This document shows positions 592 through 10,341 of a DNA stretch of 64,000 nucleotides, piece after piece. The notes below the pieces were generated by a model. The model did not search any database. It was not told the DNA's origin and saw nothing but the letters and a program-made list of their open reading frames with translations. How positions within the stretch are numbered: the first letter of the stretch is position 1; every line of letters starts with the position of its first letter. This stretch comes from an uncultured delta proteobacterium (GTDB lineage: Bacteria > Myxococcota_A > Polyangia > Polyangiales > B10-G4): assembly GCA_963727445.1 (NCBI GenBank), contig CAVSGI010000010.1:832001-896000 (forward strand). Reading direction: 5' to 3'. The position numbers and the translations under genes are program-made.

Positions 592-1863
592 GTGCGCGTC
601 GTCGTCACAGGGATGGGGATCAACACCCCGCTCGGAGATGAGCTCGAGGCCTACTACGAGGGCCTGGTCGGCGGACGTTCGGCCATCTCCAACTGGAAGT
701 TCTTCGAACATCCCGGCGTGTACTCGAAGGTCGGCGGCGACCTGAGCACCTACGACGCTGCGGGAAAGCTCGCGTCGTTCGAGTCCCGCGTGCCTCCAGA
801 GGTTCACGCGCGGCTGCGCAAGCTCTTCCGAACCGCACCGTTCTCCACGCGTCTCAGCGTCCTGTGCTCCCTCGACGCCTGGCTCGACGCCGGGCTCGGT
901 TTCGACGAGGACCCCTGGCGTCGGGCGGTCGTGCTGGCGGGGCACAATCTGAACGAAAACTATTTGATGAAGAACTTCGAGACCTTCCAGGAGGAGCCGG
1001 ATTGGATCGATCCGCTCGCCGCGGTCTCGATGCTCGATACGGACCATGCGTCGTCCATCGGTGAAACCCTCGGCTGCCGCGGCGCTCTCTACACGGTGGG
1101 CGGTGCATGCGCGAGCGCCAACATCGCGCTCCGCTCGGCGGTGGACGAGATCCGCTACCACGGCCACGACGTCGCGATGGTCACGGGGGCGGCGCTGGAT
1201 TTCTCGCCCATGGGACTGCAGGCGATGGCGCTCCTCGGAGCGATCACCTTCGAGAGCTTTCATGACGAGCCGGCCCGCGCCAGTCGGCCCTACGACACCG
1301 CGCGCGAGGGATTCGTGCCTTCGCACGGGGCAGGCTCACTCGTCCTCGAGTCCCTCGATCACGCCCGAGCGCGCGGCGCGAGGATCCATGCGGAGATCCT
1401 GGCATGCGAAGCCGCGTCGGACGCGAGCCACCTGCCGGCTCCTTCCCAGGAGGGACAGGAGCACACGATCCGCAAGGTGCTCGACCACGGCGGCATCGCA
1501 CCGGAACAGGTAGACTTCGTCTCGGCTCACGCGACATCGACTCCGCTGGGCGATATCTCCGAGCTCCGTGCGATCAAGTCGGTGTTTGGCGAGCACACCG
1601 ACTCGCTGAAGATCAACGCCCCGAAATCCATGCTCGGGCATACGTGCTGGGCCGCCCCCGCGACCGAAGCCATCGCCGCGATCCTGCAGATGAAGCACGG
1701 GCGACTGCACCCGTCCATCAACGTCGACGACCTCGATCCGGAAGTGGACGTCGACATCTGCGCCAACCAGGCCGTCGACCACGAGGTCCGCATCATCCTC
1801 AAGAATTCTTTCGGATTCGGAGGCATCAACTGTTGCGCGCTGTTCGGACGGTGGGATGGGTGA
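592..1863 (+). CDS. Stand-alone beta-ketoacyl-ACP synthase (FabF/PksF-like) with Cys-His-His triad
   Basis: RVVVTGMG N-terminus, GGACASAN (active Cys), SAHATSTPLGD, KSMLGH, KNSFGFGG. GTG start at 592 follows a purine-rich AAGGGGAG. Confidence 0.92.
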   Translation: MRVVVTGMGINTPLGDELEAYYEGLVGGRSAISNWKFFEHPGVYSKVGGDLSTYDAAGKLASFESRVPPEVHARLRKLFRTAPFSTRLSVLCSLDAWLDAGLGFDEDPWRRAVVLAGHNLNENYLMKNFETFQEEPDWIDPLAAVSMLDTDHASSIGETLGCRGALYTVGGACASANIALRSAVDEIRYHGHDVAMVTGAALDFSPMGLQAMALLGAITFESFHDEPARASRPYDTAREGFVPSHGAGSLVLESLDHARARGARIHAEILACEAASDASHLPAPSQEGQEHTIRKVLDHGGIAPEQVDFVSAHATSTPLGDISELRAIKSVFGEHTDSLKINAPKSMLGHTCWAAPATEAIAAILQMKHGRLHPSINVDDLDPEVDVDICANQAVDHEVRIILKNSFGFGGINCCALFGRWDG

Positions 1864-3088
1864 CTGGAGCGGCAAGGCTGTGCTCGTCACTGGTGGCACG
1901 CGCGGCATCGGGCTGGCCATCGGAAAGGCGTTCGGCGCGCTCGGGGCCGACGTCGTCCTGACCCATCGTTGGGGTAGCGCCGATGAGGACGCGATTCGGC
2001 GTCAGTTCGCCGACCTCTCGGCGCCCGTACCGTCGATCGTCGAAGCCGACGCCGGATCGGACGAGGATCTGGACGCTCTGCTGGAGCTCCTGCGGCCGAA
2101 GATCGACCGCATCGAGCTATTCGTCTCGAACGTCGCGGTCGTCCAGCGCGGTGACGGGAACTTCCAGGAGCGAGCCCTTCGGCAATCGATGCGCTGGAGC
2201 ACGTGGCCGCTGAAACGCTACGTCGAGGCGATCGCGGAAGCCTTCGGCGAGCCGCCGCGCCGGGTCGTGGCGCTGTCGTCCGATGGACACGAGCACTTCT
2301 ACCCGGGCTACGGCTACGTCGCAGCATCCAAGGCGGCGCTCGAGACGCTCTGCCTCCAGATGCTGCAGCGCTTTCCCTCGATGCAGTGCAACGTGGTGCG
2401 GTCGCGACAGGTTCACACCACGAGCTTCGACGAGATCTTCGGTGAGGGAGCGCGGGAGCTCATCGCCCGCTTCGAACCCTTCGACTTGAGCGCCGAGACC
2501 GTCGCCGAGACCGTCGTCGCGCTGTCCTCCGGACGCCTCGATGCCTGCACCGGCGAGGTGATCGTCATCGATCGCGGCGCCACCTTCGGTGACAACCTCG
2601 TCTTCACGGGCCCCATCCTTCTCGGAGAGGCGACGCCCGAGTTCGAGCCGGTGAGGCCCACGCCGGTGACCCACGTCCAATGGCTCGACGCTGGCGTACC
2701 TCGGCCCGCGCAGGACCGATGGCCCGGGGTGACGTTCGTCGGTGACGAAGAGCCGGCCGATGCAGTGGTCGCTGGCATCGATTGGCGCGCGGCGGGTGAG
2801 GAGGCGATCGCGCTGCTGACGGGACGGCTCCAGGCGCTCCGCGACGGCGGCGTTCGCCCGCGCTACGCCATACAGATCGACCTCGGTTCCGAGCTGTCGC
2901 CGGAGTGTGCCGCGAGCCGCTCCGTGGGTCGATACTTCGACGCCTGGCGCCTGCAGGAGGACTTCCGACTCAACTTCGTCGACGTCCGAGGCGCCGCCGA
3001 CCTCGCCACCGACGCCGTGGTCGCCCTCACTTCGGGGCAGCTCGATGCGCTCCGCGGGCAGGTCATCCGCTTGAAGGAGCGCCCGTGA
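1856..3088 (+). CDS. SDR oxidoreductase, FabL-like enoyl-ACP reductase with an extra degenerate C-terminal SDR-like segment
   Basis: VLVTGGTRGIG Rossmann motif, Y-x6-K (YGYVAASK) followed by AALETL. Paralog of 9262-10083. Confidence 0.8.
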   Translation: MGDWSGKAVLVTGGTRGIGLAIGKAFGALGADVVLTHRWGSADEDAIRRQFADLSAPVPSIVEADAGSDEDLDALLELLRPKIDRIELFVSNVAVVQRGDGNFQERALRQSMRWSTWPLKRYVEAIAEAFGEPPRRVVALSSDGHEHFYPGYGYVAASKAALETLCLQMLQRFPSMQCNVVRSRQVHTTSFDEIFGEGARELIARFEPFDLSAETVAETVVALSSGRLDACTGEVIVIDRGATFGDNLVFTGPILLGEATPEFEPVRPTPVTHVQWLDAGVPRPAQDRWPGVTFVGDEEPADAVVAGIDWRAAGEEAIALLTGRLQALRDGGVRPRYAIQIDLGSELSPECAASRSVGRYFDAWRLQEDFRLNFVDVRGAADLATDAVVALTSGQLDALRGQVIRLKERP

Positions 3089-4338
3089 GCTCACCGTTCG
3101 ACTACAGCCTGTCGGACTTCTTCGCCGGCGACTTCGAAGACCCGCTCAAAGCGCCGCCGGAGTTCACGAAGTGGCGCGGGGAGGCGCGGGAGTACCACGC
3201 CCTCTTCGAGCGAACTCTGGCCACCGCCGCCGACGTCCGATGCTCGATCGCGCTCGAAGGCGGCCGCCGAGACGTCATCAACATGGCGTCCCTCGACTAC
3301 CTGGGCATCTGCCGTCACCCCGAGGTGGTCGCCGCGCAGCAGCGAGCGCTCGACACCTGGGGCTCGGGCGCCTGCGGAGTACCGCTCCTCAGTGGCATGA
3401 CCACCGAGCACCGCGCGCTCCAAGACGAAATGAGCGACCTCACCGGCAACACCGGCACCGTGCTCTTCACCAGTGGATACGCCGGCGCCACGGGCCTCTG
3501 CTCCGCCGTCCTTCGACGTGGCGACGTCGCCATCCTCGACGCCCACGCACACATGTCCTGGGTCGATGGCGTACACATGGCGAACGCCAAAGTCGTCACC
3601 TTCGATCACAACGATCCCGACGCGCTGGAGCGCCGGCTCGAAGAGCATCGAGAGGCGCGGCGGCTGGTCGTCGTCGATGGTCTCTATTCGATGGACGGCG
3701 ATCTGGCCGACCTCCCCGCGCTCCTGGACCGCTGCGACGCGCACGGCGTCGGGATGGTCGTCGACGAGGCGCACTCGATGTTCGCGCTCGGCGACGAGGG
3801 TGGCGGGGCCACGGCGCACTTCGGCGTACGGGATCGAGTGCGCCTTCTCTTCGGCACCTTTTCCAAGGCTTTGAGCGTCGTCGGCGCTTTCATCTCTGGC
3901 GACGCCGAGCTGATCGACTACGTCCGCTACTACGGCCACCCGTACGTCTTCTCCGCCGCGCTGCCGCCGGCGACCGTGGCAGGGATTCGCAAAGCGGTGA
4001 GCATCGTTCGCCGCAGCCCCGAGCTACGCGCCTCGCTGTGGGAGAACCAGGCCTATTTCCGCGACGGCCTGCAGGCGATGGGGCTCGACACCGGCGAGAG
4101 CGAGACGTGGGTCGTGCCGGTGATCGTGGGCGGCGACCGAGAGCTCCTGTACCGCGGCGTGCTCGAGCTGATGGAGCGAGGGCTCTTCGTCGCCCCGGTG
4201 GACTTTCCCGCGGTCGCCGAGGATCGCGTCCGTATTCGATGCGCCGTGAGCGCCGGGCACACGCGCGAGGATCTCGACACGGCGCTCAGCTTGATCGAAG
4301 ACGTGATCGCACGACCGATGCGGAGCCGGGGTCGATGA
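3085..4338 (+). CDS. PLP-dependent alpha-oxoamine synthase (serine palmitoyltransferase / BioF / KBL family)
   Basis: SLDYLG, FTSGY, FDHND, DGLYSMDGD, VDEAHS, GTFSKA (PLP Lys), FSAALPP. GTG start overlaps the upstream stop (GTGA) after AAGGAG. Confidence 0.9.
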   Translation: MSSPFDYSLSDFFAGDFEDPLKAPPEFTKWRGEAREYHALFERTLATAADVRCSIALEGGRRDVINMASLDYLGICRHPEVVAAQQRALDTWGSGACGVPLLSGMTTEHRALQDEMSDLTGNTGTVLFTSGYAGATGLCSAVLRRGDVAILDAHAHMSWVDGVHMANAKVVTFDHNDPDALERRLEEHREARRLVVVDGLYSMDGDLADLPALLDRCDAHGVGMVVDEAHSMFALGDEGGGATAHFGVRDRVRLLFGTFSKALSVVGAFISGDAELIDYVRYYGHPYVFSAALPPATVAGIRKAVSIVRRSPELRASLWENQAYFRDGLQAMGLDTGESETWVVPVIVGGDRELLYRGVLELMERGLFVAPVDFPAVAEDRVRIRCAVSAGHTREDLDTALSLIEDVIARPMRSRGR

Positions 4339-5291
4339 GGCCTCTGATCTTCCTCTTCCCGGGACAGAGCTCGCGGGATGCGGAGATGTTCGCCCGCCTC
4401 GAGGCGATCGATCCGCAGGTCGCGACCCGGTTCGCGACGGAAGCGACGTCGCGCGGTGCCTCGCCACCGACGAACGACAGCCCGACGAACCTCGACATCC
4501 AGCTGTCGGTGCACGCCGCGAATCGCGCGTGGGCCACGCTGCTGTCGAAGCGCGGCATGAGCGCCGCGGCCTCTGCTGGGCTGAGCCTGGGCGAGTACGC
4601 ACACCTGGTGGACATCGGGGCGATCGCGGAGACCGATGCTCTCGACCTGGTTCGGCGGCGCGGCGAGCTCTACGACGCCGGACCTCCCGGTGTGATGGCA
4701 GCGCTCTATCCGCTGGACGGGGAGCGCGTCGAGACCATCCTCGGGCGGGTCTCCGCCCGACTCCCCGGCCAGATCGCCGCTGCCGTGTACAACTCGCCGA
4801 GCCAGACCGTGGTCGCGGGGACACCGGAGGCGATCGAAGAGGCAATCGCGATGGCCGAGGAAGAGTACGCCGCCGGTACGGTCATCGAACGCCGCATTCC
4901 GATGCACACGCCGCTCTTCGAAGCGGTCGCCGCGCCGCTCGGCGAGGCGCTCGAGCGTGTCCACTGGCAGGCGACCTCCAAAGCCTACTGGCCAAACGTG
5001 CTCGGTGAGCCGTTGGCTGCGGCTGGGGCGGGTGACCTGGTCACCCTGCTCGCTCGGCACGCCTACGAGCCCGTTCGGTGGCGCCAGACGATCGACGCGA
5101 TGGTCGCGCAGCACCCCGACGCGATCTTCGTCGAGGTCGGTCCAAGACGCGTGCTCACTGATCTGATGAAGCGTCGGTGGCACCCGACCGCCACGGTATT
5201 CGCTCTCGACCCCGGCGCCGACACTCCACCCGAGCGCGTCGGCGGCGCGTTCGAATCCACCATCGAGGAGATCTCGCATGCCCGCGGATGA
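4335..5291 (+). CDS. fabD: Malonyl-CoA:ACP transacylase (FabD-like AT)
   Basis: FLFPGQ, GLSLGEY nucleophile motif, VRRRG, NSPSQTVVAG, PMHT, PVRW, FVEVGP. ATGA overlap with upstream gene. Confidence 0.88.
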   Translation: MRPLIFLFPGQSSRDAEMFARLEAIDPQVATRFATEATSRGASPPTNDSPTNLDIQLSVHAANRAWATLLSKRGMSAAASAGLSLGEYAHLVDIGAIAETDALDLVRRRGELYDAGPPGVMAALYPLDGERVETILGRVSARLPGQIAAAVYNSPSQTVVAGTPEAIEEAIAMAEEEYAAGTVIERRIPMHTPLFEAVAAPLGEALERVHWQATSKAYWPNVLGEPLAAAGAGDLVTLLARHAYEPVRWRQTIDAMVAQHPDAIFVEVGPRRVLTDLMKRRWHPTATVFALDPGADTPPERVGGAFESTIEEISHARG

Positions 5292-5817
5292 GCTTCAGCG
5301 CCGCGTACGCGCTGCGCGCCGAGCGCCGCTCTTCGACGTGACCGACGTCCCCGCCGTGAGCCACGACCGCCAGGCGATCGGCCGGATCCTCCGGCATCGC
5401 GGGCCGATGCTCCTGCTCGACGAAATCATCGCCGTCGACCCACGCGCGGGGCGTATCGTCGGCCGCAGATCCCTCCTCGACGAGGACTTCGGCTTCGAGG
5501 GTCATTTTCCGAACGACCCGGTCTACCCCGGTGCGCTCCAGGTCGAGCTCGCCGGACAGCTCGGACTGTCACTGAAGTACTTCTTGGACAACGAAACCAC
5601 CGAGATCGCTGAAGACGCGCGCCCGCCCCTGGTTCGTCTTCTTCGCGTCGCGGAAGCGCATTTTGCTGCGCCAGCCGTTCCCGGCGACTCCCTCACTGTC
5701 CTGGCGGAGCGCTTGGAAGACGACGGTTGGACGTATGCATCCATCGCCCAGTTGATCAAGGCCGACACCATCGTGAGTGCGTGTGTGTTCGAAGCCATGG
5801 TGGACGAGGAATCATGA
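5278..5817 (+). CDS. 3-hydroxyacyl-ACP dehydratase (FabZ/FabA hot-dog fold)
   Basis: ILRHRGPMLLLDEI and FEGHFPNDPVYPGALQVE motifs. Confidence 0.85.
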   Translation: MPADELQRRVRAARRAPLFDVTDVPAVSHDRQAIGRILRHRGPMLLLDEIIAVDPRAGRIVGRRSLLDEDFGFEGHFPNDPVYPGALQVELAGQLGLSLKYFLDNETTEIAEDARPPLVRLLRVAEAHFAAPAVPGDSLTVLAERLEDDGWTYASIAQLIKADTIVSACVFEAMVDEES

Positions 5818-6560
5818 GCACACTGTTCATCACCGGAGGCTCGCGCGGCATCGGTGCGGCGACCGTGGCCCACGCGGCCGCGAGCGGCCACGACGTCGCG
5901 TTCACCTACGTCAACGACGCTGACGCGGCCGATGCCGTCATCGCGCGAGTGGCCGAGGCGAGCCCCGACCGGAAAGTGCGTGCGTATCAGCTCGACGTGA
6001 GGGACTCCGCCGCCGTCGACAGCGTCGCCGACGAGGTGCTGCTGGCCTTCGAGGGCGTCGACGCGGTGATCTGCAACGCCGGCGTCAATCGCAACGGGCT
6101 CGCCTATTCGATGGAGGACGACGAGTGGCAGACCGTGATCGACACCAACCTCACGGGCTCGTTCTACGTCTGCCGCGCGTTCCTACCGGAGCTCATAGCG
6201 AACGGCGGCGGAAAGATCCTCCTGCTTTCGTCGGTCACCGCGTATGGCGCCTCCGGGCAGGCCGCCTACTCGGCGAGCAAGGCAGGCCTTCACGGCCTCG
6301 CCCAGACCCTCGCGAAGGAGTACGGGCCGAAGAACGTGACGACCAACGTCGTCCTCCCGGGATACTTCGACACCGACATGACGCGCGGTGAAGGAATGTC
6401 CACGCAGCTGCGCGACTACGCGACGGGCTACTGCCCGCTACGCAGACTCGGTGAGCTCGATGAGCTGGCCCAGACGATGCTCTTTCTCCTGTCGCCAGCC
6501 GCGGGCTTCATCAACGGCGCGGTGATTCCGGTCACCGGCGGATTGGATTGGGCGCTGTGA
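5814..6560 (+). CDS. fabG: 3-oxoacyl-ACP reductase (FabG-like SDR)
   Basis: ITGGSRGIG, NAG, IDTNLTG, GQAAYSASK (YxxxK), PGYFDTDMT. Confidence 0.88.
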   Translation: MSTLFITGGSRGIGAATVAHAAASGHDVAFTYVNDADAADAVIARVAEASPDRKVRAYQLDVRDSAAVDSVADEVLLAFEGVDAVICNAGVNRNGLAYSMEDDEWQTVIDTNLTGSFYVCRAFLPELIANGGGKILLLSSVTAYGASGQAAYSASKAGLHGLAQTLAKEYGPKNVTTNVVLPGYFDTDMTRGEGMSTQLRDYATGYCPLRRLGELDELAQTMLFLLSPAAGFINGAVIPVTGGLDWAL

Positions 6561-7804
6561 GAGTCGGGATCGAGAACATCCGGGTCTACCCGAGCTCGAT
6601 GGCGCTCGACATGAGAACGCTGGTGGAGGCACGTGGCGGAGACGTGACCGAAGTCTGCGGCGAGATGATGATCGACGCGCGATCGGTGAACCCCGCCTGG
6701 GAAGACCCGATCACCATGGGCGTGAACGCCGCCCGCATGCTCTTGACTGACGAGGATCGCGAGCAGGTGGGCCTGTTGCTCGTCGGATCGGAGAGCGGAC
6801 CCGACCAGGAGAAGTCGCTGAGCACCTGGATCCAGCGCTACGCCGGGCTCGAAGATCATTGCCGCAACATGGAGGTGAAGCACGCCTGCTATGCGGGCAC
6901 CGGCGCCGTGCACCTCGCGGCGCACTGGCTGCTCGCGCAGCCGGACGACGTGAAGGCACTCGTGGTCACCACGGATCAGTCTCGCGCTCATTTCCACAAG
7001 CCGTACGAGTTCGTGATGGGAGCGGGCGCGGTTGCGATGCTGCTGTCGAAGAACCCGCAGTTCCTCGAGCTGGAGCTCGGGCTCGGCGGAGTGTTCACCC
7101 ACGAAGTGTCCGACCTGACGCGCCCCACTTCCCGGGTAGAGGCCGGGCACAGCGAAACGAGCCTGCTCTCCTATCTCGACGCGGCCGATCTGACCTTCGA
7201 GCGCTACGCCGAGGCCGTCCGCGCACGTCACGGCGAATCGCTGCTGAGCTGGGAGGCGTATCGCGCGTGGCTGCCGTATCAGGTCTACCACGCCCCCTTC
7301 GGGGGGATCACCAAGCGCGCCCACCGGGCGATCCACCGCTTGTTCGAGGACTTCGACGCCGCGCGCACCCGCCGGGACTTCGAAGCTCGGGTCGTACCCA
7401 CCCTCAAGTACAACCGCCTGATGGGGGGGACGTACGCGTCGAGCGTGTTCGTGTCCCTCCTCGGAACGGCGAGCGCCTTCGGACCGGAGGTGGCCGGGAG
7501 TCGGGTCGGCATCTACTCGTACGGATCGGGTTCCTGCGCGGAGTTCTACTCCGGCGTGTTCGGCGCGCAGGCCTCGGAAGTGGCGCGGGAGGCGGGCCTC
7601 GACGAGCTGCTCGCGGCGCGTCGCCCGCTCACCGTGCGTGAGTACGAAGACGCCGAGCGCGAGCGCAGCGCCTTCATCGACTGCGGCGACTACCGCACGA
7701 GCAAGGACGGCCACGACGGGTGGTACGACGAACGCTACGCGGGTCGCGAGTCGTTGGTCTTCGACGGAATCCGGGACTTCGAACGCCAGTACGCCTGGAG
7801 CTGA
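6557..7804 (+). CDS. HMG-CoA synthase-like beta-branching enzyme (PksG-like)
   Basis: EDPITMGVNAA, GSESGPDQEKS, EVKHACYAGT (catalytic Cys), YHAPFGG, YSYGSGSCAEFYSG. Confidence 0.9.
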   Translation: MRVGIENIRVYPSSMALDMRTLVEARGGDVTEVCGEMMIDARSVNPAWEDPITMGVNAARMLLTDEDREQVGLLLVGSESGPDQEKSLSTWIQRYAGLEDHCRNMEVKHACYAGTGAVHLAAHWLLAQPDDVKALVVTTDQSRAHFHKPYEFVMGAGAVAMLLSKNPQFLELELGLGGVFTHEVSDLTRPTSRVEAGHSETSLLSYLDAADLTFERYAEAVRARHGESLLSWEAYRAWLPYQVYHAPFGGITKRAHRAIHRLFEDFDAARTRRDFEARVVPTLKYNRLMGGTYASSVFVSLLGTASAFGPEVAGSRVGIYSYGSGSCAEFYSGVFGAQASEVAREAGLDELLAARRPLTVREYEDAERERSAFIDCGDYRTSKDGHDGWYDERYAGRESLVFDGIRDFERQYAWS

Positions 7805-7805
7805 G

Positions 7806-8513
7806 ATGCACGAAATCCGCCTCCCCGAAGAGCTCGACCACACCAGCCTGCGTGAGCTCCGCGACCGCGTCCTCTCCGTCGATCACGGCGAGACGATCGT
7901 GCTGCACGGAGCGAACGATCGGGTGTTCTGCCGCGGGCTCTCGTTGGGATCCCTGATGAGCGTCTCCGCGGAGGAGCGAACGGAGGGTTTCGACGCCTTC
8001 GAGCAGACGATCCTCCACCTCGCCGCGGGGGCTTCTCCCGCGATCGCGGCGATCGATGGCGTAGCCATGGGCGGCGGGCTCGGGCTCGCCGCGGCGTGCG
8101 ACGTGGTGCTCGCGACTCGGCGCGCCGAGGTCGGGCTTCCGGAGCTTCTCTTCGGCCTCGTCCCCGGCATGATCTTTCCAGTGCTGCAGCTGCGCGCGAG
8201 CGGCCCCGACCTGCGCCGCCTCGCGCTCGAAGGCGCGGGTGTGTCCGTGGAGACGGCCGCCCGGTATCGACTCGTCGACCAGGTCGTCGAGGAGGACCTG
8301 CTCGAACGAACCACGCAGACGTGGGTGAGAAAGTTCCGCCGGACGGAGCGCCATGCGGTCGGGCGTCTCAAGCGCTGGGCTGCGGGCGACGCACTCGCTC
8401 GGGAGGTTCGGGTCGGGCGAGAGCACCTCGCCGAGCTGGCCACGAGCGAGATCGCGCGCCGGCGCATCGAAGCGTTCGCCGAGGGACTCGCGCCCTGGGA
8501 GGGAGAATGCTGA
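7806..8513 (+). CDS. Enoyl-CoA hydratase-like ECH1 (PksH-like dehydratase)
   Basis: VFCRGL, GVAMGGGLGLAAACDVVLA, LPELLFGLVP. Lies directly after the HMGS-like gene. Confidence 0.85.
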   Translation: MHEIRLPEELDHTSLRELRDRVLSVDHGETIVLHGANDRVFCRGLSLGSLMSVSAEERTEGFDAFEQTILHLAAGASPAIAAIDGVAMGGGLGLAAACDVVLATRRAEVGLPELLFGLVPGMIFPVLQLRASGPDLRRLALEGAGVSVETAARYRLVDQVVEEDLLERTTQTWVRKFRRTERHAVGRLKRWAAGDALAREVRVGREHLAELATSEIARRRIEAFAEGLAPWEGEC

Positions 8514-9265
8514 GCTCGGCGCGAGTCGACTCGTCACTCGTTCGCGTCCGGTTCGAGGAGGGCATCGGCTGGATCGAGATGGTCGACGAAGCCAACCGGA
8601 ACGCGTTCGGCCGAGCCTTCGTCGCGGCGCTGATCGCGGCACTCCGACAGGTCGACGGCAATCCCGAGGCGCGTGTGGCCGTGCTGATCGGCGGCAGCGA
8701 GATCTTCTGCAGCGGCGCGTCCGCCGAAGTGCTCGACGAGCTTCAGTCCGGCACCATCGCCCCGACCGAGCTGGTGCTCTCGACGCTGCTCCTCAATCTG
8801 AGTATCCCGCTGATCGCCGCATGCGAAGGCGGCGCCATCGGGGGCGGATTCGCGCTGGCACTCGCGGCGGACATCGTCGTTCTCGCCTCGGACCGGCGCT
8901 ACGGCTTCAACTTCATGGATCTCGGAATCACGCCGGGCATGGGCACGACGCGGCTGGCCGAACACGTGCTCTCACCTGCCATCGCTCACGAGCTCCTGTA
9001 CAGCGGCGAGCTCCGGCGCGGCAGCAAGCTCGCGTCCGCCGGCGTGAACGCGGTCCTGCCGTCTGCCGATGTCCGCGAGCACGCCGAGCTCCTGGCGCAG
9101 CGAATCGCTATGAAGGATCGCCGCAACCTGGGCATGCTGAAGCGAACGCTGACCCTGCCGCGACGCCTCGCGTTCGAGTCGGCGCGAACTCTCGAATCGC
9201 TCATGCACGAGCGGTCGCTCGAAGGGCTCGACCTGAGCGCCTTCGGGGGAAGGAGCGAGAAGTGA
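8507..9265 (+). CDS. Enoyl-CoA hydratase-like ECH2 (PksI-like decarboxylase)
   Basis: MVDEANRNAF, FCSGA, GGAIGGGF, NFMDLGITPGMG, LESLMHERS resemble PksI/CurF-type ECH2. Confidence 0.85.
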   Translation: MLSSARVDSSLVRVRFEEGIGWIEMVDEANRNAFGRAFVAALIAALRQVDGNPEARVAVLIGGSEIFCSGASAEVLDELQSGTIAPTELVLSTLLLNLSIPLIAACEGGAIGGGFALALAADIVVLASDRRYGFNFMDLGITPGMGTTRLAEHVLSPAIAHELLYSGELRRGSKLASAGVNAVLPSADVREHAELLAQRIAMKDRRNLGMLKRTLTLPRRLAFESARTLESLMHERSLEGLDLSAFGGRSEK

Positions 9266-10083
9266 CACTCAGACTGCCGGAACACGTGGTCCTGGTGACG
9301 GGCGGAACGATGGGAATCGGGCTCGCGAGCGCACTCGCCTACGGCGAAGCCGGGGCCAAGACGATCCTCACCTATCGCTGGGGCAGCGCCGACCTCGAAG
9401 AGGTCCGAGGGCGCTTCGAAGCCGTCGGGGCCCCGCCTCCGCTGATCCTCGAAGCCGACGTCTCTCACGACGAAGACACCGTTCGCTTGATGGACCAGAT
9501 CGCCGAACACCACGACAAAGTCGACGTGTTCGTGTCGAACGTCGCGTTCGCGCAGCGTACGAGCGGGGTCGACGACTACAAGAAGCGCAATCTCTTCAAG
9601 AGCCTCGAATACTCGTCCTGGCCGATGTGGGCGTACACGAAGGCGATTCGCGACCGGCTCGGCGCGTACCCGCGTTACGTCATCGGACTTTCGAGTGACG
9701 GGCCGGACAGCTTCTTCATGAACTACGATTTCGTCGCGATATCCAAAGCGGTGCTCGAAACGATGTGCCGCTACATGAACTTTCGCCTCTTCGACGACGG
9801 TGTGCGCGTCAACGTCGTGCGCTCGAGATTGGTGCGCACCGAGTCCTTCGACGCCACTTTCGGACCGGCGTTCCACGCGTTCCTCGAAGCGATGGGCGGC
9901 TTCGAAGACTGCTACACGACGCCCGAGGACATCGGGAAAGTCGTGCTCGCGCTCGGCTCGGGGCTGATGGATGCCGTCGGCGGGCAGGTCGTGATGGCCG
10001 ACAAGGGATTTTCGTTTTTCGACAACCTCAACGGAATCGACGAACGAGCACATGCCAAAGGAATCTCGTTCGAGACGGAGTAG
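9262..10083 (+). CDS. SDR oxidoreductase, FabL-like enoyl-ACP reductase
   Basis: VLVTGGTMGIG, FVSNVA, NYDFVAISKAVLETMCRY (Y-x6-K). GTG start after AGGAG. Confidence 0.82.
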   Translation: MTLRLPEHVVLVTGGTMGIGLASALAYGEAGAKTILTYRWGSADLEEVRGRFEAVGAPPPLILEADVSHDEDTVRLMDQIAEHHDKVDVFVSNVAFAQRTSGVDDYKKRNLFKSLEYSSWPMWAYTKAIRDRLGAYPRYVIGLSSDGPDSFFMNYDFVAISKAVLETMCRYMNFRLFDDGVRVNVVRSRLVRTESFDATFGPAFHAFLEAMGGFEDCYTTPEDIGKVVLALGSGLMDAVGGQVVMADKGFSFFDNLNGIDERAHAKGISFETE

Positions 10084-10086
10084 AGA

Positions 10087-10341
10087 ATGAACAACGATGA
10101 AATTTTTGCTGTCGTCACTCGCCACCTCGGCGAGATCGTGGAAACGATCGATCCCGCTTCGGTGAAGCGCGGCGACTCGATGAAGGACCTCGGTGCGAGC
10201 AGCCTCGACATCGTCGAGGTCGTCTCGTGCAGCATGCGCGAGCTGAAGGTGCGGGTCCCACGCGCGAAGCTCTCCACCGCCAAGAACATCGGCGACCTCG
10301 TCGACCTGCTCGAAGGCGCCGTGGACGGCGGCAAGGGCTGA
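10087..10341 (+). CDS. Acyl carrier protein (resembles beta-branching donor ACPs such as AcpK)
   Basis: 84 aa, acidic, DSMKDLGASSLDIVEV phosphopantetheine-site motif, NIGDLVDLL C-terminus. Confidence 0.9.
   Translation: MNNDEIFAVVTRHLGEIVETIDPASVKRGDSMKDLGASSLDIVEVVSCSMRELKVRVPRAKLSTAKNIGDLVDLLEGAVDGGKG

Follow-up and report, generated by a model that had tools for sequence, protein, structure and literature searches.

Beta-branching has been described in the literature as an accessory function of type I polyketide synthases (PKSs), which needs a ketosynthase (KS) without the active-site cysteine (KS0) and distinct donor and acceptor acyl carrier proteins (ACPs). Myxobacteria have the AIB pathway, a coenzyme A-bound route to isovaleryl-CoA that uses MvaS, LiuC, AibAB and a medium-chain dehydrogenase/reductase (MDR). 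The KS0 of the branching cassettes is described as a non-elongating decarboxylase in the available part of PMC12560621. In Pseudomonas fluorescens MYb115 the PfSgaAB system, a PKS and an alpha-oxoamine synthase (AOS), is reported to make sphinganines (PMC12134224), and proteobacterial serine palmitoyltransferases (SPTs) are reported to prefer acyl-AcpR (PMC11324152). Here we analysed 64,000 nucleotides of an uncultured delta proteobacterium (assembly GCA_963727445.1, contig CAVSGI010000010.1, positions 832,001 to 896,000; hereafter the window), in which an operon of 11 genes combines a 3-hydroxy-3-methylglutaryl-ACP synthase (HMGS) cassette with discrete elongation enzymes and an AOS.

The operon consisted of 11 ORFs between 592 bp and 10,341 bp of the window, all on the forward strand, which encoded KS, SDR1, AOS, an acyltransferase (AT), a dehydratase (DH), a ketoreductase (KR), HMGS, two enoyl-CoA hydratase-like proteins (ECH1 and ECH2), SDR2 and ACP, in that order; SDR1 and SDR2 are short-chain dehydrogenases/reductases (SDRs). 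The genes overlapped or lay 1–3 bp apart, as the ten junction gaps were −8, −4, −4, −14, −4, −13, +1, −7, −4 and +3 bp. ORF, Pfam and NCBIfam checks thus agreed with the original prediction, which was made from the letters of the window, on the 11 genes, their order, place, strand and spacing. All 11 proteins matched the expected Pfam families and none reached an NCBIfam equivalog cut-off. The GC content at third codon positions was 0.77–0.87 across all 11 genes, and a promoter and terminator scan gave no signal above that of shuffled sequences. Among sequencing runs, no RNA run was listed as containing the sequence, and two DNA runs were listed with small shares. The same gene set recurred in many genomes and metagenome contigs, which argues that the arrangement is not due to chance. 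The catalytic residues were intact and no partner PKS accompanied the operon. Judged from its sequence, the operon very probably encodes a stand-alone synthase with one ACP, whose AOS would release a methyl-branched acyl chain as a 2-amino-3-ketone. The product is probably an undescribed methyl-branched, sphingolipid-like molecule, predicted to be made without a partner system.

The operon KS was not of the KS0 type, as Cys173 was present. Its Cys-His-His triad was conserved in all 105 relatives, which form 83 groups at 90% identity, and the cysteine was absent from all seven PKS-linked cassette KSs from annotated plasmids. A search of 50% representatives brought up mainly giant PKSs and no further Ser-type KS0 for comparison. 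The KS tree was dropped as a guide to the order of events, the cluster clade having a support of 94/97 and the tree being unrooted. The family might preserve an elongating form of the enzymes ancestral to the PKS beta-branching cassettes.

The ACP carried a FAS-like helix II (GASS39LDIVE; FAS, fatty acid synthase) without a Trp flag. An S(L/I)D(I/M/V) motif was found in the ACPs of 59 of 61 relatives, the other two being unparsed, whereas six of six PKS-linked donor ACPs had an Arg at the third position after the Ser. No ACP of the family and none of the 16 carrier domains of the host genome bore the Trp flag that marks acceptor ACPs. The sole six-frame match to the flag in the host sits in a frameshifted locus on contig C1 and was set aside as probably a read-through artefact. 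Where the cassettes pair a separate donor ACP with an acceptor ACP that bears a Trp flag and belongs to a type I PKS, the operon had one ACP. As the KS keeps its Cys and the ACP is FAS-like and persists in natural variants that lack HMGS (see below), the operon is not an orphan trans-acting cassette.

The best PDB matches of HMGS were CurD and PksG, with 240.9 bits versus at most 163.5 bits for structures of the CoA type. Its Glu82, Cys114 and His248 were kept in 64 of 64 relatives, and in a FastTree phylogeny the cluster HMGSs grouped apart from both PKS-linked and CoA-type HMGSs. An 'RF' dipeptide near the N-terminus was present in all eight PKS-linked HMGSs and in none of ten cluster HMGSs. 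A short HMGS loop was rejected as a sign of acetoacetyl acceptors because four of the eight PKS-linked HMGSs have the same loop. Glu113 of ECH1 was kept in 54 of 54 relatives and His234 of ECH2 in 52 of 54, with gaps in the other two. PksI and CurF were the only PDB matches of ECH2 at E<1e-22; the position of PksI Lys80 is not Lys in ECH2.

The operon also encoded a complete type II FAS-like set, namely KS (Cys-His-His), AT, KR (YxxxK), DH (His/Glu), enoyl reductase (ER; Yx6K) and ACP. Conservation was complete for Glu90 of DH (91 of 91 relatives), for Ser84, Arg109 and His191 of AT (63 of 63) and for Tyr155 of SDR2 (104 of 104). SDR1 and SDR2 were 45% identical and both had FabL/FabI as best NCBIfam matches; they are enoyl reductases by type, given the Tyr-x6-Lys spacing and profile matches with FabI and FabL first. 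The C-terminal part of SDR1 (about 155 aa) was 52% identical over 25 aa to its own N-terminal part, its nearest Atlas clusters bore PF13561, and it was a separate ORF in loci L005, L085 and L088. From its sequence it looks like a degenerate SDR piece.

Table 1. Genes of the operon, with coordinates in the window
Gene and predicted product	Coordinates	Strand	Basis of assignment
KS, PksF/KS0-like, intact triad Cys173-His313-His350	592..1863	+	PRK07103, 344.8 bits (cut-off 445)
SDR1, enoyl-ACP-reductase type, Tyr152-x6-Lys159	1856..3088	+	Pfam/NCBIfam, motif
AOS, alpha-oxoamine synthase dependent on pyridoxal phosphate (PLP); His156, Asp227, His230, Lys261, gatekeeper Val99	3085..4338	+	PF00155; PDB 3A2B
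AT, FabD/MdcH-like acyltransferase; Ser84, Arg109, His191	4335..5291	+	Pfam/NCBIfam
DH, FabZ-type dehydratase; His76, Glu90	5278..5817	+	Pfam/NCBIfam, motif
KR, FabG-type 3-ketoacyl-ACP reductase; Tyr152-x3-Lys156	5814..6560	+	TIGR01830, 217.8 bits
HMGS, HMG-ACP-synthase type; Glu82, Cys114, His248	6548..7804	+	PDB matches CurD, PksG
ECH1, PksH-like dehydratase; Glu113	7806..8513	+	best NCBIfam PRK07112, 97 bits (cut-off 250)
ECH2, PksI/CurF-like decarboxylase; His234	8507..9265	+	PRK07110, 207.9 bits (cut-off 215); PDB PksI, CurF
SDR2, enoyl-ACP-reductase type; Tyr155-x6-Lys162	9262..10083	+	top PDB matches of profile FabI, FabL
ACP, sole one in operon, AcpK/CurB donor-type overall	10087..10341	+	PRK07117, 70.1 bits (cut-off 79); CurB

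SDR2, with 1310 homologues at E≤1e-20, was a good marker gene of the cluster family. A GTDB genome scan retained 80 loci, of which 19 had at least 41% identity, and further cluster genes were seen in 18 of these; the other 61, with at most 39% identity, were dropped as generic SDRs. A metagenome scan with a single KS sequence gave no match, and with a KS alignment 80 of 416 confirmed matches were kept. The resulting 99 loci (19 from genomes and 80 from metagenomes) included 22 that were fully flanked, with 2 kb or more of sequence outside the last core gene at either end. DH, KR, SDR and ACP were present in all 22, the cluster KS in 21, AOS, HMGS and ECH2 in 19 each, AT in 17 and ECH1 in 16, the last count being too low by the threshold used, since L013 and L016 do have ECH1. 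The cluster spanned at least five phyla (Pseudomonadota, Myxococcota, Spirochaetota, Acidobacteriota and Bacteroidota, with others). The gene order of the operon was shared with L171 and, with an extra SDR, with L005; cultured carriers with an AOS were Nannocystis radixulma and N. pusilla. The spread was patchy: of 41 near relatives, host counted, two had HMGS, the sole genome of the same genus (86% complete) had none, and SDR2 was found in 24 of 401 genomes of the phylum.

A member of the cluster family was also found near transposases on the mobilisable plasmid pSF001 of the cultured Serratia fonticola GS2, where the cluster runs across the origin of the record and is partly duplicated or frameshifted (L183:1238-6757, L186:7305-13233). 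In L135 (13,407 bp–18,821 bp) genes with OmpA and nidogen domains break the cluster between HMGS and ECH1. One of the 61 dropped loci, in a metagenome-assembled genome of the Deltaproteobacteria (L025:6007-19779), was a different, KS-rich locus that contained six KS-like genes together with a KR and a remote relative of SDR2.

The host genome (9.47 Mb, about 69% GC, 85.6% complete) contained no second copy of HMGS, ECH1, ECH2 or ACP. Its gene content, and the match of loci in phylum-mates to a Bradymonadales locus, mark the host as probably a myxobacterium. No PKS or nonribosomal peptide synthetase (NRPS) domain was found among the 34 other window ORFs scanned, and the 12 kb upstream of the operon held, by eye, kinase, regulator and exported-protein genes. 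On the contig, C10, the nearest other KS domain lay about 186 kb upstream of the operon and the sole condensation domain about 144 kb upstream. The expectations that the window holds no modular PKS or NRPS, that no megasynthase adjoins the operon upstream and that the cassette is self-contained were all upheld, the last also by the Cys of the KS and by four of five relatives without a long-frame KS. The same host contig does encode a 2855-aa single-module type I PKS (C10:646160-654727), by eye KS-AT-DH-MT-ER-KR-ACP-reductase, whose ACP has no Trp flag.

This type I PKS is one of three points in favour of an ordinary cassette that acts in trans on a distant modular PKS, the FAS-type genes and AOS being merely accessory; the others are the greatest similarity of KS, ACP, HMGS and ECH2 to PksF, AcpK/CurB, CurD/PksG and PksI, and L142, in which a type I KS stands beside a second KS/HMGS/ECH/ACP set. 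The explanation is nevertheless largely refuted and has very little probability left, as the KS keeps its Cys, no host carrier domain (0 of 16) bears the Trp flag, and no KS domain in a frame longer than 500 aa was found in four of five carrier genomes searched, whose completeness is not stated. Type I-like KSs were present in only 3 of the 99 loci, so that the predicted recurrence of the gene set without a type I PKS was borne out; two of the three, L011 and L017, are loaders in which a fatty acyl-AMP ligase (FAAL) is fused to ACP and KS. The third, L142, was the sole locus with a cassette beside a modular-type KS. Its divergent operons together contain two KSs with the Cys and two ACPs, and a truncated KS of a type I PKS follows one of these operons (L142:2-13130).

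Natural variants that lack HMGS bear on the place of the branch. In eight loci (L011, L017, L168-170 and L176-178) KR, SDR, ACP, AOS and DH were kept and a FAAL-ACP-KS fusion replaced KS, AT and the cassette; in six of the eight the fusion was called from its length and KS motif. No HMGS was found in two of two and five of five FAAL-variant genomes searched, the five being 96–99% complete. As the ACP persists in these variants without any HMGS, it is not only a donor, and it is most simply the elongation carrier and AOS substrate there. SDR2 matches were found in 15 of 34 genomes of the family that holds this sister cluster, which was flanked by ORFs of similar size in several genomes (of the obg family in L176). 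Two other HMGS-less loci kept the Cys-bearing KS, L180 with a KS III and an AMP-ligase and L124 with an acyl-CoA dehydrogenase and a class II DAHP synthase. In L116 (10,819 bp–12,363 bp), which also keeps a Cys-bearing KS, a B12 radical-SAM (DUF4070) enzyme replaces the HMGS and ECH2 of L115 (12,043 bp–14,044 bp). These two loci were otherwise syntenic (67–74% nucleotide identity), each beside an FtsX/ABC/HlyD exporter, and L115 showed no ECH1.

Since three of the four replacement types look like starter supply, the cassette is favoured as a branched-primer module. An ACP-bound isovaleryl primer, which the original prediction had offered as its alternative, fits this pattern of gene swaps better and is now the leading variant, held tentatively. 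A single branch introduced at mid-chain or by the final cycle, for instance in a convergent route to fungal-like 9-methyl-8-ene or 5-methyl bases, would agree with the L115/L116 swap, with the desaturases in 4 of the 99 loci and with 9-methyl-4,8-dienes being known sphingoid bases. We consider this improbable, as most other HMGS replacements resemble starter loading and L116 is a single contig, so that HMGS could sit elsewhere in that genome.

In the leading version, which stands at somewhat less than an even chance, one beta-branch would be introduced at priming as isovaleryl-ACP, followed by elongation and release as an iso-branched long-chain base. We infer each chemical step, as well as branch position, chain length, amino acid and final product, from the gene content. 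AT would load malonyl onto the sole ACP. The Cys-bearing KS would decarboxylate malonyl-ACP to acetyl-ACP, to serve as primer and HMGS donor, and would also condense. HMGS, ECH1 and ECH2 could then convert acetoacetyl-ACP to 3-methylcrotonyl-ACP; acetoacetyl-ACP is accepted by BonG, according to the portion available of PMC12560621. An enoyl reductase would yield isovaleryl-ACP, which KS, FabG, FabZ and ER would extend to an iso-branched acyl-ACP. Finally, AOS would condense the chain decarboxylatively with a small amino acid and so release it as a 2-amino-3-ketone (keto long-chain base), which may then undergo reduction, desaturation, hydroxylation or N-acylation by enzymes of the host or of neighbouring genes.

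The presence of two ER paralogues in most loci, and of hydroxylase and desaturase genes in some operons, would also suit programmed repeated branching, in which HMGS/ECH1/ECH2 alternate with FabG/FabZ cycles and leave a methyl on every fourth carbon, as in a phytanoyl or geranylgeranoyl pattern. A single donor and acceptor ACP would then carry an isoprenoid pattern built from acetate without isopentenyl diphosphate (IPP), released as a base like aplidiasphingosine, which is given as 2-amino-5,9,13,17-tetramethyl-8,16-octadecadiene-1,3,14-triol in the accessible text of PMC2444003. The methyls of that base map to acyl C3, C7, C11 and C15, the former beta-carbonyl positions, and both alkenes sit where ECH2 would leave them. 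A terpenoid origin accounts for aplidiasphingosine equally well, however, and no link between the cluster and tunicates was seen. Repeated branching would also demand cycle-by-cycle selectivity of free enzymes on one ACP, and only one ER was present in several loci (L016, L018, L102, L108 and L146). We regard it as unlikely, both as a programme of the synthase and as a source of an aplidiasphingosine-like base.

The PLP residues of the AOS were intact, with Lys261 in (T/S)(F/L)SK, the stacking His156 and the Asp227/His230 pair. Its best PDB match was the Sphingobacterium SPT 3A2B (232.7 bits). The description of the enzyme as SPT-like held only loosely: SPTs were its best PDB matches, but it reached no SPT cut-off and its gatekeeper is Val, as in KBL and ThAOS. 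It was below all BioF and KBL model cut-offs as well, and the AOSs of four relatives were likewise below the SPT model cut-offs. Val99 aligned with the Ser of the SPT GSR motif. For the position equivalent to ThAOS Val79, PMC11906848 gives Val for KBL, Thr for ALAS and Ser for both SPT and AONS. Wild-type ThAOS (Val79) is described as also taking Ala, Ser and palmitoyl-CoA. Among 48 cluster AOSs this position was Ser in 33, Val in 7 (window included), Ala in 7 and Pro in 1. Val99 hints at Gly or Ala as AOS substrate, yet wild-type ThAOS takes Ser too. The operon AOS perhaps favours Gly or Ala, and most relatives would be predicted to use Ser or Ala.

The gatekeeper Val, shared with the glycine users KBL and ThAOS, could also point to a short-chain product, in which a C5–C9 branched acyl-ACP joined to Gly or Ala would yield a diffusible signal, be it an aminoketone, a hydroxyketone or a pyrazine, comparable to the products of CqsA/LqsA. 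The nearly invariant Gly117-His118-Asn119 of the KS lies where FabF has small residues, and may narrow the acyl channel. Sensor kinase or regulator genes flanked several loci, and a GNAT of 360–400 aa was absent from four of five genomes tested. Even so, CqsA was among the weakest PDB matches of the AOS (101 vs 233 bits), relatives have membrane desaturases, hydroxylases and FAAL loading, all of which point to long chains, and the Val79 wild type of ThAOS also accepts Ala, Ser and palmitoyl-CoA. A short-chain signal is accordingly rather unlikely.

The neighbourhoods of the 99 loci contained genes for desaturases (4 loci), fatty acid hydroxylases (3), GNATs of 360–400 aa (6) and epimerase-type SDRs (15–17), and near some loci additional classical SDRs adjoining AOS and phosphopantetheinyl transferases (PPTases). 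These neighbour genes fit the tailoring of a long-chain base. The GNAT resembles, and may be, the ceramide synthase bCerS; PDB and Atlas searches gave no name for either the GNAT or the epimerase-type SDR. On host contig C6 a 379-aa GNAT gene was followed by an epimerase-type SDR (21,433 bp–23,558 bp; L165:7434-9559), a candidate N-acylation and reduction step, and the pair was 37% and 32% identical to the pair beside AOS in L102/L108. A family of about 240 aa without Pfam or NCBIfam match recurred beside AOS or AT (L007:1636-2370, L116:14372-15091, L014, L115, L138 and L173-L175).

The cluster AOSs fell into several clades (FastTree), and those of L006, L132 and L164 grouped with a separate SPT-like gene of the host on C1 (support 0.997), which suggests that AOSs were recruited repeatedly. 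The C1 locus (44,116 bp–49,839 bp; L166:4116-9839) encoded an AMP-binding (FAAL-like) protein, ACP-like ORFs, a KS, a chain-length-factor-like KS and the SPT-like AOS, whose best model was SerpalmtaseCFB (268 bits on part of the gene). Several of its genes are frameshifted, probably by assembly indels, and the locus may be the housekeeping long-chain-base pathway of the host.

Several observations weigh against the reading of the operon as a one-ACP synthase that primes with a branched unit and releases a long-chain base. Known HMGS cassettes use distinct, selectively recognised donor and acceptor ACPs, as far as the part seen of PMC12560621 describes, and in the operon both roles would have to fall to its sole ACP or to the host FAS ACP. 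The AOS scored 291.8, 281.3 and 241 bits on SPT models with cut-offs of 640, 500 and 670, and scored higher on KBL-related and BioF models (314.7 and 311.5) than on SPT (291.8). AOS was absent from 3 of the 22 flanked loci (L111, L112 and L124) and was not seen in the fetched stretches of pSF001. The operon had no ketosphinganine-reductase-like SDR. The GNAT was found in only one of five cluster-bearing genomes tested, so that a ceramide end product would not be general. Two ER paralogues exceed the need of a single branch. The FAAL swap is not a clean test, as the KS is replaced too, and the radical-SAM swap of L116 fits chain methylation and not priming.

Directly upstream of the operon the window contained the 3′-end of a DUF5648 gene (1 bp–414 bp). 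Downstream (10,630 bp–17,552 bp) were a hybrid histidine kinase and a long HAMP-repeat/GAF sensor kinase split over several frames, the breaks probably being assembly indels. Further on were a metallophosphoesterase and a 1171-aa AAA_27/SMC-like gene that form an SbcCD-like pair (28,887 bp–33,658 bp) and, at a distance of 38 kb from the operon, paired genes for the biotin carboxylase and the carboxyltransferase of an acyl-CoA carboxylase (48,457 bp–52,069 bp), which we would guess to be of the methylcrotonyl-CoA type.

No description of this gene set was found in the literature searched, which excluded most subscription journals. By its sequences, the operon family departs from two rules, that of the KS0 and that of separate donor and acceptor ACPs, and its branching seems to take place within a fatty-acid-like cycle of discrete enzymes. 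With 11 proteins, the system opens the selectivity of donor and acceptor ACPs to testing, and it suggests that many environmental bacteria have a route to branched long-chain bases that does not depend on leucine. Such a route would bear on unassigned environmental bacterial sphingolipids, for example the 1-deoxyceramides of the Black Sea lipidome, of which 149 structures are reported in the part available of PMC11334938.

Comparison with the HMGS cassettes of modular PKSs (bacillaene AcpK/PksF-I, curacin CurB/CurD/CurF, bongkrekic acid BonF-I/BonN, thiomarinol and sandarazol) showed that the operon likewise has HMGS, ECH1, ECH2, a PksF-like KS and an AcpK/CurB-like ACP with intact catalytic residues. 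Unlike them, it has a Cys in its KS, an ACP without the donor-type Arg, no Trp-flag acceptor and no type I PKS, and it brings its own AT, KR, DH, two ERs and AOS. The leading model shares with the AIB pathway the sequence acetoacetyl, HMG, methylglutaconyl, methylcrotonyl and isovaleryl, but would achieve it with an ACP-type HMGS, a PksI-type ECH2 decarboxylase and SDR reductases. Discrete KS, AT, KR, DH, ER and ACP are also found in type II FAS and in highly reducing type II PKSs such as that of cispentacin (AmcE/AmcF), whose AmcF and AmcE models the operon proteins matched weakly; in contrast to these systems, the operon has no chain-length factor or FabH and adds the branching cassette and release by AOS.

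Like PfSgaABC, the operon couples a dedicated chain-building synthase to an AOS, and some of its relatives add an SDR that might reduce a keto base. SgaA is an iterative type I PKS for which no branching cassette is described, and SgaB is Ser-specific, in the available portion of PMC12134224, whereas the operon encodes discrete enzymes, HMGS and two ECHs among them. As in the bacterial ceramide pathway (Spt/AcpR/AasR/bCerS/CerR), for which the parts consulted of PMC11324152 and PMC11087976 were used, the AOS adjoins a specialised ACP. In 6 of the 99 loci the GNAT is nearby, in some paired with the epimerase-type SDR. That pathway activates ready-made fatty acids, as far as it is described there, while the operon would build and branch its own chain and has an AOS outside the SPT cut-offs. 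By analogy, then, the operon would work like an HMGS cassette joined to a type II FAS, with AOS release in the style of PfSgaAB.

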